In this document: one piece after another, positions 18,001 to 27,000 of the stretch
Numbering within the stretch: the stretch's first letter is position 1
Layout: each line of letters starts with the position of its first letter
Source of the DNA: an uncultured bacterium
GTDB lineage: Bacteria > Krumholzibacteriota > Krumholzibacteriia > Krumholzibacteriales > Krumholzibacteriaceae
NCBI GenBank assembly: GCA_963813815.1
Contig: CAWFAD010000016.1
Coordinates: 480,001 to 544,000, forward strand
Direction of reading: 5' to 3'
DNA: 64,000 nucleotides
Made by a program: the position numbers

Positions 18001-21000
18001 AGCCGCGAGTAGGGAGTTCGTTCCTCGCGCATCGTCGTGCGCGTCTCGGTCGAGCGCGGATCGGCAGAGGCGATCTCGACCCGCACGAGCTTCGTGCGCT
18101 CGCCCGAGAGCCAGCCCATGACCCGGCCGCGAAGTCGCCAGAAAGGCACGTGCACGAGCCGCTGATCGACGATCGCGGTCTCGCGGGCGGAGATTCGGCC
18201 GCTCGATTCATCCGCGATCCACCGGATCGCCGCGAGCCGGGCCTTGCCCGGCGTGGTCGACGGTTTGAGAATGAAGCTCCGTAGACCGCGCGGCGCGGCG
18301 ATGAGGAGCGCCGACGAGCAGTAGCCGCAGCGGATGCTCCGTTCCCCTTCGTTGATGCGGAGCGCTCCGCCGCATGAGGGGCAGGTCGCCCCGAAGGCGA
18401 GCCCGCGATCGGCCGCTCTTCGGCCCCGCGAGGGGATCTCGCGCTCCGCTGACGCGCGTTCATCCATGGCGCTCGAATGCACGGCCGTCATCCCTTCGCC
18501 CGCTCCCGGAGCGTAAAGACGAGATACCCGGCCGACGCGGCCGCGGCCACAGCGGCGAGTCGGCCGAAAAAACCAGGCGTGACCTTCGCGAGCGTGAAAT
18601 ACACGGCGAAGAGAGCGGCGATCGAAAGTCCCAGTCCGAGGCTCGGCCTGCGCCTGCGCTCGGGGGGCAGATCCTCCGCGACGACCTGCCAGCTCTCGCC
18701 GACGACCGCCGCCCGGCCCCGCCAGCCGCCGGCCTCGTACTCGAGGGAATACACGGGAAGGTAAACGATCCGCGGCGCTCTCGGATCGACGCTGTCGGCG
18801 TCGACCACCGGTTCCGGCTGCTCGCTCTCGCTCAGGAACCCGTAGCTCCCGGCGGGAGGGTACGGCGCCTGATCGGCCGCCGTCCACGCGCCGGCCGCCG
18901 GAACGAGGGAGATCCCGCCGTCGTCATCCTCCGCCATGGAAAAGGGAATGAACGAGAAATCCGTCGCCAGGCGCGTCGCGCGCCGGCGCTCTTTCCGGGC
19001 GAGGTGCGATCGCAGCGATGCCTCGGCCGCCGCGTCGTCGCGCGCGTGCGAAAGGATGAGACGCTCGACTTCCCTGGGTTTGTCGAGGGCGAGGGATGCT
19101 CCGCAGAAGGAGCAAATGAGCATCGTTTGCCCCGGCTCGAACCGGTTCTCCCCGCCGCAGAGGCTGCATTGAACGAACATGGGAACCCGCCTGTGTTCCG
19201 CCGCCGCCGCGGCGCCCGCGCGCTACGCCTTGCCGCCTTCGAGGTTCTTGCCGCAGCCCATGCAGAACTTCGCGCCCGCCGGAACCTCGGTCTTGCAGCC
19301 GGGGCATTGGATCGAGCGCGCGACCGGCGCGCCGCAGGAGGCGCAGAAGCGCGCATCGGCCGCTATCTCCGCGCGGCATTTCGGGCAGAGGACCGCGTCT
19401 TTGACGGCGGACGCTCCGCCCTTCATTCCTTGGGCGATCATGCCTGGGATCATGAACCCGAGGCCGGCGCCCAGGCCGATTCCCATCCCGCCGGCCGCAG
19501 CGCCGCCCGCGCCGCCGTCTCCGCCGGAAGTCGCGGCGTCGCCCATGGCCTTCGCCGCCTTGAACTTGAAGAAGCTGTCGAGATCGCCCACCGCGGCGAG
19601 GCCGCTCCGCTCGTCGATCATCTTCTGCACTTCGGGGGGCGGGGTGATGGCGCTGAGGTAGAAGTCGGCGAGCTCCATGCCGTATTTGCGAAAGTCGCCG
19701 ACGAGGCGCTCCTTGATCTCGACCGCGAGCTCGTCGTACTGGCGCGGCAGATCGAAGATGGTGTCGAGCTTCTCGCCGAAGAGGTCGTTGATCCGGGCGA
19801 CGATCACGTCACGGAGATAGTCGCCGATCATCCCGCTCGTGTAGAAGCCCTGCGTGCCGACGACCGCGTTGATGAAGAGCGCGGGCTCGGCGATCTTGAA
19901 GGTGTAGACGCCGAAGGCTCGGAGCCGCACGAGGCCGAGCTTCGAGTCGGTGAAGGCCACCGGATCCTTCGTGCCCCATTTCTGGTTGATGAAGCTCTTC
20001 ATGTTGACGAAGAAGACCTCGGCGCGGAACGGGCTCTTGAATCCCCATGGGAGCGAGATGATCTTCGTGAGGATCGGCAGGTTCTTCGAGGTGAGGGTAT
20101 GTCGTCCGGGTCCGAAGATGTCGAGCCCCTTGCCGTCCTTGAAAAAGACCGCCATCTGGTTGTCCCGGACGATGAGCTGCGCGCCGATCTTGATCTCGGC
20201 GGACCCTTCCGGTGGAATGCGGTGAACGATCTCGTCGCCTCCGAGATCGAACCATTCCAGGATTTCCATGAACTGAGACATACCGGCCTCCCCTTCGCAT
20301 AGATAGAGTTTGTTCGTTGCGGGCGTCGTGCCCGGCCGCCCGATTGAGGACGAATGAGCAAAGGTAATGCCAAATCGGCGGTTAGCGCCATTTTGGAGGT
20401 CCGGCTGGCGCCGGCGGCCGGCCGGCCGCCGATATCCCATTTTCAAAAAAGGAGATATGACCTATACTGCAACCCGGGGTGGAGCGGTCCGGGGGAGGGT
20501 CGAGCGTGGAGTCCTGGCACGAAAGGAGTCGGTCGTGGCTCTCTTTGCTGCTTTCGGCATCGGTATCATCTTTCTTTTCATCTTCATGGTGATCCTCGGC
20601 GGGCTCTTTATGTGGCTCGCCGCCAAGATCTCCCGCATCGAGGACTCGAGCTTCGGCCGGGCGCTCGTCGCGGCGATCGGGGCGAGCTTCGTCGCGGTTC
20701 TCGCCGCGTTTCTCTTCAACCTGCTGCCCGTCTTCGGCAACATGTTCGGCTTCATCGTCGGGCTCATCCTGTCGATTCTCGTCATCAAGGCCGCCTTCCG
20801 CACCTCCTTCGGGAAGGCGCTCCTCGTCTGGGTTTTCAATCTCGTCGCGACGCTCATCGCCCTGGGGCTCGCGGCCGTTCTCACGGCGAGCTCGTTTCTC
20901 ATCGGACGCTCCATCTAGCTCCGCGGCGGCTGCGCGCGAGTCGCCGCGGCGAGACGGGAGGCGGAATCGTCGCCATGAAAGAACGCGGTGTTCCGATCGT

Positions 21001-24000: not shown

Positions 24001-27000
24001 TCGATGATCCTCAAGGCCACGGTGACGCAGGCCGACGTGCATTACGTCGGCAGCATCACGATCGACCAGGATCTCATCGAGAAGGCGAATCTCTGCGAGC
24101 ACGAGAACGTTCTCGTCGCCGACCGTTCGAACGGCCGCCGTCTCGAGACGTACGTCATCGTCGGGGAGCGGGGGAGCGGCGTCATCGCGATGAACGGCGC
24201 GGCCGCGCATCTCATCAACGAGGGGGACGTCGTCGACATCATGGCGTTCAGCTGGTCGAACGGGGAAGTGCATCCCCTCTTCATCGAGGTGGACCGGGCG
24301 AACCGTTTCGCGGGTTATCACGACGGGGACGTTTCGTGAGGCGCCCCGCCGCGCGCCGCGGCCCGGCCGGAAAGGGAACATGTTCTCCATGAACCTGCGG
24401 TTGTTTCGCCTCATGTCGATCCCGGTCGAGATCAACCTGAGCTGGCTCTTCGTGCTCGCGCTCATGACGTGGACCTTCGCGACCGGCTTCTACGCGGACG
24501 CGCTTCCCGACGGCAGCAGGCTCGAGCTCTGGGGGCTCGGTTTCATCACGGCGATTCTGGTGTTTGTCTCGATCCTGCTCCACGAGTTCAGCCATTCGAT
24601 CGTCGCCTCCCGCAACGGTCTTCCGATACGCAAGATCACGCTCTTTCTCTTCGGCGGCGTCGCCCAGATGGAGCGCGACGTCGATAACCCGACGGTCGAG
24701 CTCAAGATGGCGGCGGCCGGCCCGGCGATGTCGGTCGTGCTGGCGGCTCTGTTCTTCGCGCTCTCGAGGATCTTCTCGCAACACCGTCTCGTGTACGTCC
24801 TCATGAACAATCTCGCCTACGTCAATCTCCTCGTGCTCGGATTCAACATGGTGCCGGGTTTTCCGCTCGACGGCGGCAGGATACTCCGCGCCGCGATCTG
24901 GCGCGCGACGGGAAACGTGCAGAAGGCGACGCGCATCGCGAGCCGGATCGGCGGCGCGTTCGCGATCGTGCTCATCGTCTACGGCGTGATCAATCTCTTC
25001 GGCGGCGTCATTATCGGCGGACTCTGGCTCATCTTCATCGGTTTTTTCCTGCGCCAGGCGGCGCAATCGGGATATCTGCTCGTGACCTTCAAGCAAACGC
25101 TCGGGCACCTGCGGGTCTCCGACGTCATGCGCTCGCCGGTCGTGACGGTGGACGCCTCGGAGAGTCTGCGTCGCCTCGTCGACGACTACGTTCTCCGGTA
25201 CCACTACGCGTCGTTTCCGGTGATCGAGGGAGGACGGCTCGCGGGCATGGTCTCGCTCAAGGACGTCAAGCGGGTCGACATGTCGGCGTGGGGCGAGGCG
25301 AGCGCGGGGGAGATCGCGGATCGCGGGATCGTGCCGTACGCGCTCAGCCCGGAGCAGCCGGCCGAGGCGCTCGTCGGCCTCATGATGAAAAAAGGATACG
25401 GCCGGCTGCCGGTCGTGGACGGCGAGGGCAGGGTGGTCGGGATCGTATCGAGGCGCGACCTGATGGAAACGATCAAGATGATGGCGTATCTCGAGGAGTA
25501 GCTCAGGCCTCCTTTTCTTCCTCCATATCCTCGAAGTCCTCGAACTCGTCGGTCTCGGCGGGCTCTTCGATCTCGTCCTCGAGGATCGAGTTGTATGCTC
25601 CGTACTTCTTTACTTTCTTGTCGCTGTCGTCCTGAAGCTTGCGTTTGGGATCCGGTTCCGGACGATGGTTCCGCTTCTTCTTCGGCATGGGCCTGCGCTT
25701 CAAAGTAAGGTCGCTCCTTTCCAGATGAAGCCGTTATGCCTTCGCTACCGATTGAAACCGCCTGCCATAAGTATAGCAAAAACGATTTCCATTTTCACCA
25801 GTCTGCAAAAACCGTGACAATTCGGCGGGGGAGACGGTTCGGGGGAGCTGCGAAGGAGGAGGGCCGCTCGGGGGCGGCCCTCCAACCTCTTGATTCATAG
25901 TCGATTCCGCGCTTCGCGGAGCGTTCCGGAAAAGGCCGGCCGCGCGGCGCGGCGCTCATTGCGCCGGCGGGCGGTTTTCCTCGAATACGGCGTCTTCGAT
26001 CGCTTCGTCGAACGCCACCGTGCTCCAGACGAACTCCTCCGCCTTGCGTCCCTCGGCGTACACCGTGACGTGAAAGGGGACGAGGCGGCCGCCGACGGCG
26101 CGGTAATCCTCGAGGAGATACACCCGGTTCGCCTTGCGCTCGACGCGGCGCGCGGGAACGTAGGTCCGCTCGTTCACGTCCCAGAGGATGGTGTCTCCCT
26201 CATGGACGCACCCGGCGCGCAGGAGCCCGGTCCCCGAAAGAAGCGAATCGCCGGGAACCACGGGGACCGTGAAGAACGTGTCGCAGGAGGCGAGGTAGTA
26301 CGCGACGCCGTCGACGCGATCCAGGAGATTCTTCAAGTTCGCCGCGACGTTCGCGCTTCGCCCGGCGTTGAGGTTGACCACGTACCACGCGTCCCCGCCG
26401 TTGCCGTAGTACATGCGGTAGAACGGGTGATCGTACGCGCTGTTGTCCTGATCGATCTTGACCTTGTCGGGCTTCTTGACGGCGCGCGCGTAATCGGCCT
26501 TGAGGGTTCCCCACCCGGGCGTGTCCCAGGCGATGTGGAGCCCTTTCTCGACGCGGGTCGTCCAGCTCCTGTCCTCGCCGAGCGCTTTCGACGTCCTTTC
26601 GAGCATGGACCTGGCGTCGTCCTCCGCGGCCCCCGGCGCGGAAAAGGCGCCGAGCAGCAGAAGCGAGGCGGCGAGGACGGCGGCGGGCCGCATTCGTTCA
26701 TGGATCGCGTTCATCGCATCATCCTCCATCCGTCAGACCGTGAGCTCGCGGTGCGCCTCGACGAGCTTCGAGCGGATCGCGAGACCGTGCGGGCACGTCC
26801 CGTCGCAGGGCGCGGCGCAGCGGGCGCAGAGGGCGGCGCTGCGATCGGCCGGGAGCTTGCGGTAGAGCGAAATCGCCCGTTTCTCTTCGCCGTAGCTGTG
26901 GAAGTAGAGACGGTAGCGCAAAATCTCCGCGATCGGCACCTCCCGGGGACACACCGCGAGGCAGCTCGAGCATCCCGGACGGCAATAGTCGCGGTCGAGG

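Follow-up and report, generated by a model that had tools for sequence, protein, structure and literature searches.

Complementary active-site halves on a free PanD and a ligase-fused PanD-fold domain suggest a split-site aspartate 1-decarboxylase in the Krumholzibacteriales

Why would an adenylate-forming ligase carry a PanD-fold domain that lacks the Gly-Ser cleavage site, directly ahead of a gene encoding a free PanD? The question is raised by the window analysed here (the whole stretch of DNA, 64,000 nucleotides), in which genes encoding a CE4-type deacetylase, a ligase-PanD fusion (its PanD-fold domain here denoted F) and a free PanD (denoted S) follow one another head to tail (Table 1). 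Gene calls, Pfam and NCBIfam confirmed the three genes at the positions given by the genome-wide survey's note, and the two strings it quoted, HYVGSITID and EPDGPDCIVID, are both present. The note had read F as a dead domain that docks the ligase onto a normal PanD. The deacetylase gene lies 18 nucleotides upstream of the fusion; the gap between fusion and S is 62 nucleotides, no terminator-like site was seen between these two genes, and a GGAG stands 6 nucleotides ahead of the S ATG.

Table 1. Features of the locus, with positions in the window, strand and basis of assignment
Feature	Positions	Strand	Basis
CE4-type deacetylase, 400 aa	20975-22177	+	Pfam Polysacc_deac_1 PF01522 6.6e-22
Ligase + PanD-fold fusion ("F" gene, g02129), 573 aa	22196-23917	+	Pfam/NCBIfam
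PaaK/CapK-like adenylate-forming ligase part (residues 1-451; N-domain + mobile C-subdomain)	22196..23548	+	phmmer, Foldseek
Lys442, presumed catalytic lysine of last ligase motif	23519..23521	+	conservation, sequence
F domain, PanD fold, residues 452-573	23549..23917	+	PF02261 5.4e-24; residue tables
Free PanD "S" (g02130), 119 aa	23980-24339	+	Asp_decarbox 7.6e-37; residue tables
Met9 codon of S (Lys9 in canonical PanD)	24004..24006	+	sequence alignment
M50 site-2-type protease with CBS pair	24380..25501	+	Pfam

S passes the panD equivalog TIGR00223 (115.9 bits, cut-off 106) and matches PanDs in the PDB at 1.4e-29. A gap-free alignment with M. tuberculosis PanD showed that Met9 and Leu11 replace Lys9 and His11, which corrects the description of S as a normal PanD. 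The cis half of the site is retained (Y22, G24-S25, T57, Y58, N72 and G73-A75). In 23 of 30 loci no more than 1.5 kb separates S from the fusion gene. All 23 adjacent copies have M9, position 11 is occupied by L, M or V, and Y22, G24, S25, R54, T57, Y58 and N72 are invariant among them; the 25 distinct S sequences have M9 in 24 cases and V9 in one, with G24, S25, R54, T57, Y58 and N72 again invariant. A mean column identity of 78% and 43 invariant columns indicate that S is under strong constraint.

The losses are reversed in F. Asp_decarbox covers residues 454-560 of the fusion with 84.7 bits (cut-off 25); F scores 76.5 bits against TIGR00223, under its cut-off, matches M. tuberculosis PanD at 1.3e-17, and is modelled by AF2 with a pLDDT of ~90. 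The trans-acting half is kept, K459, H461 and R504 standing at positions 9, 11 and 54, and the cis half is absent, with D474-C475 in place of G24-S25, F508 in place of Y58 and C522 in place of N72. In 115 of 115 F homologues we found K7, K9, H11, R54 and G73, and D or E at position 24; position 25 is C, G or S, Y58 and N72 each occur in 1/115 and Y22 in 0/115. The survey was right that the fused domain lacks the cleavage site; its view of the domain as simply dead was not supported, the trans-acting residues being kept throughout. Gly24-Ser25 is thus found in S and not in F, Lys9 and His11 in F and in no copy of S, and Tyr58 with Arg54 in S, F having R54 and only the single Y58. By its residues, neither S nor F alone is a complete PanD.

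Excerpts of PMC3314653 list K9, H11, Y22, G24, Pyr25, R54, T57, Y58, G73-A75, I86 and N112 as strictly conserved in ADCs and assign Lys9* and Arg54* to the other subunit. Those of PMC6969166 locate the active site where two neighbouring subunits meet, Arg54* acting in trans, and those of PMC3975893 report that T57 is required for activation, that N72 bonds Ser25 and that malonate is bound by K9 and R54. We found no literature data on K9 mutants; the case for K9 being needed is made by strict conservation and the structures.

Because F keeps and S loses the cross-subunit K9 and H11, while the cis losses are reversed, we consider it fairly likely that S and F are complementary halves of one aspartate 1-decarboxylase, an obligate split-site S·F heteromer. 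S would cleave itself at Gly24-Ser25 to give the pyruvoyl group and would also contribute Thr57, Tyr58, Asn72 and the Gly73-Ala75 backbone. F would remain uncleaved, adjoin S within the ring and donate three residues in trans: Lys9, to pair ionically with the alpha-carboxylate; His11; and Arg54, for the beta-carboxylate. Complete sites would arise only where S in cis meets F in trans; an S2F2 ring in which the chains alternate, for example, would have two. The survey's suggestion that the fused fold plugs into the PanD oligomer is hereby backed and sharpened, F keeping exactly the cross-interface residues; as S lacks K9 and H11, docking is probably obligatory for catalysis and more than a tether. 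The pair would have originated when PanD was duplicated, one copy became joined to a CapK/PaaK-like ligase and each copy lost residues that the other kept. What was observed is how the genes are built and ordered, which residues they keep and which genomes have them; the hetero-oligomer, with its predicted processing, activity and stoichiometry, is the proposal drawn from this. The beta-alanine enzyme of this order would then function only as a two-gene complex with one partner fused to a ligase.

The S/F residue pattern was seen in every relative examined and is absent from control PanDs; it is not due to chance. K-H-Y-G-S-R-T-Y at positions 9/11/22/24/25/54/57/58 is present in 87 of 88 control PanDs, drawn from the phylum's other families and from 78 genome loci in other phyla, the remaining one being T57S. 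Barring obviously wrong or truncated starts, only P0121, P0122 and P0123 lack K9 among the best 150 50%-cluster representatives. A Met9 PanD, with H11 still there, was found at only 2 of 80 metagenome loci (L188 and L189), which are exactly the 2 metagenome loci where a ligase-F fusion gene immediately precedes the PanD, an independent recurrence of the arrangement; the other complete metagenome PanDs are canonical (78/78). In the tree, the F sequences group as a single clade (SH-aLRT 100) and S plus P0122 as another (96), both within one 29-row group (86) apart from the sister-family PanDs. Of the 52 genomes of the order, 45 have both genes, 3 have just one of them and 4 have neither. A canonical PanD was found in none of the 52, and the phylum's remaining 156 genomes yielded no S- or F-type PanD.

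Could S be self-sufficient, a homotetrameric PanD to which a dead F merely docks the ligase, channelling beta-alanine to an envelope polymer and not to pantothenate? The equivalog match, the intact pyruvoyl site with T57, Y58, N72 and R54, and genome G027 (94% complete), which has S with M9/L11 and a GT4 in the place of the fusion gene that we failed to detect, are consistent with this reading, and the GT4 and CE4 context fits a sugar acceptor. However, K9 and H11 are missing from all copies of S and kept in 165 of the 166 complete PanDs checked outside the order, F retains K9, H11 and R54 beyond what pure docking would demand, and polymerase and polymer export genes are absent from the locus; we regard this explanation as distinctly improbable. 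Even less probable is that F has no contact with S, forming its own oligomer as a dicarboxylate- or amino-acid-binding or regulatory module, and that S is a PanD of altered specificity or in decay. The carboxylate-binding set K9, H11, R54 and G73, the invariant acidic position 24 and the few genomes in which the genes are not adjacent (G009, G006, G017 and G025) would suit it, but it gives no account of why the losses match so exactly, is at odds with the constraint on S and with the occurrence of Met9 PanDs only together with F, and would leave the order without a complete ADC though PanC is kept. G027 and the four genomes with non-adjacent genes do, for their part, count against the split-site heteromer.

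PanC is indeed present in 60 of 61 relatives, and S and F are the sole PanD-fold genes found in the order. For these reasons the S/F pair most likely also feeds pantothenate, and the survey's view that beta-alanine goes elsewhere rather than to pantothenate was not upheld. The literature excerpts mention uracil degradation and promiscuous enzymes as alternative beta-alanine routes; among 46 genomes of the order just 9 have a PLP-type decarboxylase (PF00282) scoring above the cut-off, and G027 carries such an enzyme. The S/F pair is probably the main beta-alanine source of the order. Repeating the search in the window's own assembly (90.8% complete) again yielded no PanB or PanC, as the survey had noted, nor any further PanD; the PanB/PanC gap is probably an assembly gap.

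The ligase part has the two-domain adenylate-forming ANL fold of the PaaK/CapK branch. It matches the DVU_1553 family AMP-dependent ligase NF045666 over residues 36-354 (1.5e-47; 162.3 bits, under the cut-off of 300), PaaK at 7.6e-33 and, by phmmer, PaaK-family structures (4r1l, 4.7e-32); Foldseek with the AF2 model found BT_0428 (8.6e-29), PaaK2 (7e-28) and also PaaK1 over ~440 columns. The PaaK equivalogs TIGR02155 and NF041878 are missed (103.2 vs 646.3 and 113.7 vs 700 bits), and CapK_C occurs in 87% of the members of the ligase's Atlas cluster. Across 45 homologues the residues of T118-G123 (the P-loop), Y266-G267, Y326-D330, E352-R354 and G441-K442 are either unchanged throughout or conserved to 90% or more; G441 is among the invariant ones and K442 among those at 90% or more. 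K442 lies only ~10 residues before F, and this fusion point is fixed in three families as well as in one additional metagenome lineage. The ligase clade also has non-fused members, in G030 and G020, so the ligase can work without F.

The upstream gene was confirmed to encode a CE4 domain, as expected of the PgaB-like deacetylase that the survey had described; PgaB itself is not supported, since the match to NCBIfam TIGR03938 (5e-29) reaches 101 bits against a cut-off of 321.9 and is confined to the N-terminal part, profile positions 7-143 of 621. No signal peptide was evident when the N-terminus was read by eye, and the enzyme is putatively cytoplasmic. In 9 of 19 loci of relatives an orthologue immediately precedes the fusion; orthologues sharing 50% identity or more turned up in family f1 only. 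A GT4 glycosyltransferase lies directly upstream of deacetylase-fusion or fusion in 11 of 19 genomes; linkage of both to the fusion is limited to f1, the deacetylase being unlinked in f2 and f3. The GT4 matches EPS-type stp2 best (202 bits) and also hits BshA (105) and MshA (91), all under their cut-offs. No flippase, polymerase or export gene was found at this locus.

What, then, does the ligase do with its neighbours? Tentatively, it may use beta-alanine to acylate a de-N-acetylated sugar. Catalytically intact and tethered ~10 residues from F, the ligase would take up the beta-alanine made there and attach it to a sugar, with beta-alanine entering either as beta-alanyl-AMP or as the accepting amine. 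The GT4 next door would assemble this sugar and the CE4 enzyme would strip its N-acetyl group. The GT4 ahead of the fusion, and non-fused ligase paralogues that accompany a deacetylase in polysaccharide clusters, fit such a sugar context; the restriction of GT4 and deacetylase linkage to f1 and the ability of the ligase to work without F speak against the role. Somewhat more doubtful, in our judgement, is a split-site heteromer whose ligase is unrelated to beta-alanine: a neutral fusion of neighbours would have been locked by reciprocal loss, as by a ratchet, with ligase and deacetylase retaining an ancestral sugar-tailoring role with another acid. The non-fused ligases nest within the fused clade and still adjoin a deacetylase, a GT4 and an FrhB-like gene (G030:C36), the closest outgroup ligases are non-fused and sit in polysaccharide clusters, and PanC needs free beta-alanine. 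The fixed fusion point argues weakly against such a ratchet, because a ratchet would also preserve it. An extension of the beta-alanine reading that we think unlikely makes the F(cis)/S(trans) interface a holding site for beta-alanine that feeds the adenylation site, the operon yielding a beta-alanyl-aminosugar conjugate. S retains R54 and an invariant D86, for neither of which the alternating ring has an obvious need; S Arg54 could hold the single carboxylate, with S Met9/Leu11 at the former alpha-carboxylate pocket, and the acidic residue 24 of F, possibly with S Asp86, could hold the ammonium group. The product would then pass to the adenylation site ~10 residues away, giving a channelled line from aspartate through beta-alanine to beta-alanyl-AMP, and GT4, CE4 deacetylase, ligase·F and S would together make a small molecule or glycan by a logic like that of mycothiol and bacillithiol.

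Some PaaK-family ligases yield esters or amides directly (NatL2, AjiA1, BagE/FevW, ClxA), and in NatL2, AjiA1 and BagE the acyl-adenylate goes to a non-CoA acceptor. NatL2, AjiA1, BagE/FevW, ClxA, PaaK1/2 and BT_0428 are the best sequence or fold matches of the ligase part, at 20-24% identity, with all equivalog cut-offs missed and none of them carrying a PanD domain. Mycothiol and bacillithiol systems combine a GT4 (MshA/BshA), a deacetylase (MshB/BshB) and an ATP-dependent ligase (MshC/BshC). The GT4-deacetylase-ligase trio in operons of 8 relatives (L036, L037, L040, L042, L043, L045, L047 and L048) resembles them in logic only: their deacetylase is LmbE and their ligase CysRS-like, whereas here they are CE4 and PaaK-like and the GT4 is nearest EPS-type stp2.

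Canonical PanDs (E. coli, M. tuberculosis, H. pylori and T. thermophilus structures) have the fold of S and F and a residue set equal to that of S and F summed, at a site between adjacent subunits with K9*/R54* in trans. They are homo-oligomers with all residues on each chain, whereas the cis and trans halves here would lie on two genes, one fused to a ligase, an arrangement that appears unlike known PanDs. Trypanosomatid AdoMetDC-prozyme and DHSc/DHSp, according to excerpts of PMC5201418 and PMC3663545, are active only with a dead or impaired duplicate paralogue, as proposed here, and AdoMetDC is pyruvoyl-dependent like PanD; they are eukaryotic, of other folds and with an unfused dead paralogue, and the prozyme acts allosterically, relieving autoinhibition, whereas F would donate active-site residues. 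In enterobacteria PanD requires for its activity a second protein that binds it, PanZ (PanM), as excerpts of PMC3473359, PMC4410942 and PMC3398536 describe; a protein that binds a nucleotide or CoA is thereby tied to the supply of beta-alanine, much as S/F would do. PanZ differs in having a GNAT fold, in being no PanD paralogue and in donating nothing of the K9/R54 type, E. coli PanD having all catalytic residues.

Downstream, the M50 protease gene begins 40 nucleotides after S. It remains beside S in G009, where the fusion lies elsewhere, and in G027, and it follows S in 14 of 19 loci; the protease is a conserved neighbour of S.

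Four co-directional genes, encoding a CE4 deacetylase, a ligase fused to a PanD-fold domain, a free PanD and an M50 metalloprotease, follow one another in the window with intergenic gaps of 18, 62 and 40 nt. There are no terminator-like sites between the deacetylase and the M50 gene, and a GGAG motif lies upstream of the start codon of the free PanD. The surrounding region has a G+C content of 65%, in an assembly of 2.53 Mb in 16 contigs that is 90.8% complete; no RNA dataset is listed among the sequencing runs. Close homologues carry names that assign the organism to Candidatus Krumholzibacteriota. 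The Pfam and NCBIfam matches listed in the genome-wide survey's note were reproduced almost exactly when the profile search was repeated, and its observation of a PanD beside a ligase with a PanD fold was confirmed. Here S denotes the free PanD (g02130) and F the PanD-fold domain that ends the fusion protein (g02129).

Genes of the S/F cluster in the window
Feature	Coordinates	Strand	Basis
CE4 deacetylase	20975-22177	+	Pfam/NCBIfam matches
Ligase-F fusion, 573 aa	22196-23917	+	Pfam/NCBIfam matches
PanD (S), 119 aa	23980-24339	+	Pfam/NCBIfam matches
M50 (site-2-type) metalloprotease, C-terminal CBS pair	24380-25501	+	Pfam

Several antisense ORFs in the window were rejected as high-GC shadow frames. 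Two plus-strand ORFs were rejected likewise: one of 677 aa (22306-24339), which shadows the fusion gene and runs into the PanD frame at its end, and one of 1440 aa (25890-30212), which lies over three real minus-strand genes encoding an unknown 257-aa protein, an aldo-keto reductase with an Fe-S domain and an S9 peptidase.

Textbook PanD is a homo-oligomer that processes itself, and the enzyme serves as a drug target. S aligns with the M. tuberculosis PanD without gaps up to residue 93, hence standard PanD numbering is valid for S; in F, position p corresponds to fusion residue 450+p. S retains Tyr22, Gly24-Ser25, Arg54, Thr57, Tyr58, Asn72 and Gly73-Ala75. It carries Met9 and Leu11 instead of Lys9 and His11, so that it is not the normal PanD the survey's note had taken it for. 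The F domain retains Lys9, His11 and Arg54, has Asp-Cys at positions 24-25, lacks Tyr22, and carries Phe for Tyr58 and Cys for Asn72. Both patterns are conserved. Met9 is found in 23/23 fusion-adjacent S genes, where position 11 is Leu, Met or Val and the remaining listed residues are invariant; across 25 distinct S sequences, Met9 occurs in 24 and Val9 in one. Among the best 120 database homologues of the fusion, 115 have a full F domain, and all 115 carry Lys7, Lys9, His11, Arg54 and Gly73. The same set has Asp (112) or Glu (3) at position 24 and Cys (88), Gly (20) or Ser (7) at position 25; Tyr58 and Asn72 are each kept in a single protein, and Tyr22 in none.

These residues have roles known from PanD structures. 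Passages of PMC3314653 list Lys9, His11, Tyr22, Gly24, Pyr25, Arg54, Thr57, Tyr58, Gly73, Ala74, Ala75, Ile86 and Asn112 as strictly conserved in aspartate decarboxylases, and describe substrate analogues that touch Pyr25, Thr57 and Tyr58 of one subunit together with Lys9* and Arg54* of the other, Lys9* forming an ion pair with the alpha-carboxylate and Arg54* acting as specificity determinant. The structure of M. tuberculosis PanD with pyrazinoate (PMC6969166) likewise puts the active site at the junction of neighbouring subunits, Arg54* reaching it in trans. Passages of PMC3975893 report that zymogen activation requires Thr57, that Ser25 is hydrogen-bonded by Asn72 and that malonate is bound by Lys9 and Arg54. 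S thus has the complete set of cis residues, those for cofactor formation and protonation, and F the complete set of trans residues, those for carboxylate binding. A trans role of His11 alongside Lys9 is our inference, drawn from its location on the same strand only two residues from Lys9. A literature search for K9A found no Lys9 mutant data.

The idea put forward in the survey's note, that the dead PanD domain is a docking module, is supported by these residues in a stronger form, a putative split active site with its cis half on S and its trans half on F. We infer that S and F bind, that S is processed and that the pair decarboxylates aspartate. A simple alternating S/F ring explains neither the Arg54 that S retains nor its invariant Asp86, where canonical PanDs have Ile86. 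Both may reflect a second function of the pocket with F in cis and S in trans, or contacts between S chains.

The signature K-H-Y-G-S-R-T-Y was found in 87 of 88 control PanDs (10 loci from other families of the phylum and 78 genome loci from other phyla), the sole exception being T57S. In a survey of the nearest 150 cluster representatives (50% identity) of 3261 matches, the commonest full signature occurred in 102. Besides a few evidently truncated N-termini, only three of these 150 lacked Lys9: P0121, which is of the S type, P0122, which has Met9 with His11 kept, and P0123, which is probably mis-started. The genome of P0122 is not among the 78 genome loci from other phyla, all of which hold canonical PanDs. 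Relatives of P0122, also with Met9 and His11, are found on the metagenome contigs L188 and L189; these are the only two of 80 metagenome loci with a non-Lys9 PanD. The 78 complete PanDs of the same scan other than these were all canonical, and one further match was partial. In exactly these two loci a 575-aa ligase-F fusion lies directly upstream of PanD, its F domain carrying K9, H11, D24, C25, R54, T57 and F58. The pattern at these loci indicates that in another lineage, a more distant one, the free chain has likewise lost Lys9 where F is present. His11 was lost from the free chain later than Lys9, and the free PanD of L188 and L189 looks like an intermediate stage in the evolution of the split.

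We searched 208 genomes of the phylum, 52 of them from the window's order (families f1, f2 and f3). S and F are both present in 45 of the 52; three genomes have one type only (F at a contig end in G002, S in G027 and G042), and four, of 61-90% completeness, have neither. No canonical PanD was found in any of the 52. Among the other families of the phylum, a single canonical PanD (140-172 bits) was found in each of f6, f7 and f9, and none in f4, f5 and f8. A PLP-dependent aspartate decarboxylase unrelated to the PanD fold is the alternative type, as described in the DVU0867 paper (PMC10102598). The PLP-type decarboxylase family PF00282 scored above cut-off in all nine sampled f4, f5 and f8 genomes and in only 9/46 genomes of the window's order; it did not reach the cut-off in the nearly closed G012 and G039. 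With PanD and PF00282 as the families searched, the S/F pair is thus, for most of the order, the one aspartate decarboxylase that can be recognised; no search for other routes to beta-alanine was made. G027 (94% complete) has a PLP decarboxylase beside an S with M9/L11, and no fusion gene was found anywhere in its assembly; at its S locus (L177, G027:C31, 5577-8340) the gene order is GT4 - S - M50, with a GT4 glycosyltransferase replacing the fusion and no deacetylase.

PanC is present in 60/61 relatives and missing only from the window's own assembly, so the PanB/PanC gap is most likely an assembly gap, as the survey's note had cautioned. The reading in that note, that beta-alanine is passed on to a polymer rather than to pantothenate, is not supported: PanC is present in the relatives, S/F is the one aspartate decarboxylase recognised in most of the order, and PanC too has to be supplied with free beta-alanine. 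The same PanC count led us to drop the ligase as a PanC substitute adenylating pantoate.

Fusion residues 1 to ~450 form a complete PaaK/CapK-type adenylate-forming enzyme. PaaK-family structures match residues 37-360 by sequence, and an AlphaFold2 model built with 45 homologues as input (mean pLDDT 86, pTM 0.72) matched BT_0428, PaaK1 and PaaK2 in Foldseek over ~440 columns (best E 8.6e-29). Five motifs are invariant or at least 90% conserved in the 45 homologues: T118-G123, presumably the nucleotide-binding loop, Y266-G267, Y326-D330 and E352-R354, which we take to be later core motifs, and G441-K442, presumably the C-terminal catalytic lysine motif. The PanD fold (residues 452-573, pLDDT ~90) starts only ~10 residues past K442, and this short tether to the mobile C-subdomain of the ligase would favour hand-over of beta-alanine. 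The fusion reached none of the equivalog cut-offs for PaaK, the DVU_1553 family, FlxY and F390 synthetase.

The deacetylase lies directly upstream of the fusion in 9/19 relatives' loci, and in three others the distance is within 20 kb; orthologues of at least 50% identity are confined to family f1. A GT4 gene lies directly upstream of the deacetylase-fusion pair or of the fusion in 11/19 genomes, all f1; its best model is EPS-type stp2 (202 bits against a cut-off of 409), with BshA at 105 bits. The window genome has this GT4 on another contig (L185, G000:C8:71203-75342), between a T9SS-sorted protein and YchF. In f2 and f3, a 40%-identical deacetylase adjoins a non-fused, 42%-identical ligase paralogue. 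The G037 pair, with a CapK-like ligase (L172, G037:C2:1-16000), belongs to a polysaccharide cluster that also encodes a Wzx-type flippase, GT4, DUF354 and a MurB-like protein. PAPS-synthesis genes are present there as well (ATP sulfurylase, APS kinase and an inositol-monophosphatase-family gene), and this combination suggests a sulfated, N-acyl-modified glycan. G030 has a non-fused 453-aa ligase that stops just past the ligase part (L171, G030:C36:8000-26000, ~3943-11348), preceded by a deacetylase orthologue, GT4 and an FrhB-like Fe-S protein; no deacetylase adjoins its fused copy on C28. Because of these polysaccharide-type contexts, ligase and deacetylase look like an old sugar-tailoring module, whose make-up suggests a de-N-acetylation and then a re-acylation, or something related. 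A PanD duplicate would have been joined by fusion to one copy of this module. A beta-alanyl-sugar is a plausible predicted product of the ligase. The window's fusion locus holds no export or polymerase genes, and a literature search for beta-alanine-containing O-antigens or polysaccharides gave nothing usable.

A weakly resolved PanD tree (74 domains, 122 columns) placed F in one clade (SH-aLRT 100) and S with P0122 in another (96). Both fall within one 29-row group (86), distinct from the PanDs of the sister families, that also includes four canonical proteins of unknown or planctomycete origin. The tree fits, without proving, a single PanD that was duplicated and whose copies then diverged. 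In the tree of the ligase part, the fused forms make one clade (95), with non-fused ligases from f2 and f3 as nearest outgroup. The non-fused ligases of G030 and G020 nest inside the fused clade, as probably does that of G022, whose copy stops at a contig end; these copies seem to have lost the F domain secondarily, each in a genome that retains a fused copy too.

In its proposed logic the S/F pair most resembles trypanosomatid AdoMetDC, a pyruvoyl enzyme that its dead paralogue prozyme activates, and deoxyhypusine synthase, made of impaired and dead paralogues (PMC5201418, PMC3663545); the closest parallel within PanD biology is the PanD-PanZ complex. In the literature searched, neither a heteromeric PanD, with one active site shared out over a pair of paralogous chains, nor a PanD fused to an adenylating enzyme was found, and no paper treats Krumholzibacteria together with pantothenate or PanD. 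If confirmed, the pair would offer an unusually clear natural example of a homomer that duplication and then reciprocal loss have made into an obligate heteromer, and the split can be read straight off residues with roles established by crystallography. In the order, S, the gene annotated as 'aspartate 1-decarboxylase', probably has no activity by itself, and its essential partner is probably the fusion, the 573-aa protein annotated as 'phenylacetate-CoA ligase' or 'aspartate 1-decarboxylase'; homologues of the fusion carry these two names or 'hypothetical protein' in databases. Correcting the annotation bears on metabolic reconstructions of CoA synthesis in Krumholzibacteriota, and with a ligase tethered to the PanD fold, a new glycoconjugate containing beta-alanine becomes a possibility.

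The region is part of an extended block of synteny (PAP2, three unknown genes and an SPFH protein, then M50, aldo-keto reductase, S9 peptidase and OPT), and for this reason the neighbourhood alone says little. The tightest gene link is that of the fusion and S, adjacent in 23/30 loci. M50 follows S in 14/19 loci, and it accompanies S even where the fusion is located elsewhere (G009) or went undetected (G027). In the window, the SPFH/Band-7 protein has a double zinc ribbon (19223-20446, minus strand) and its gene is followed by three conserved genes without a Pfam family, two of which show weak zinc-ribbon matches; these four genes (16638-20446, minus strand) are syntenic in 11 relatives.
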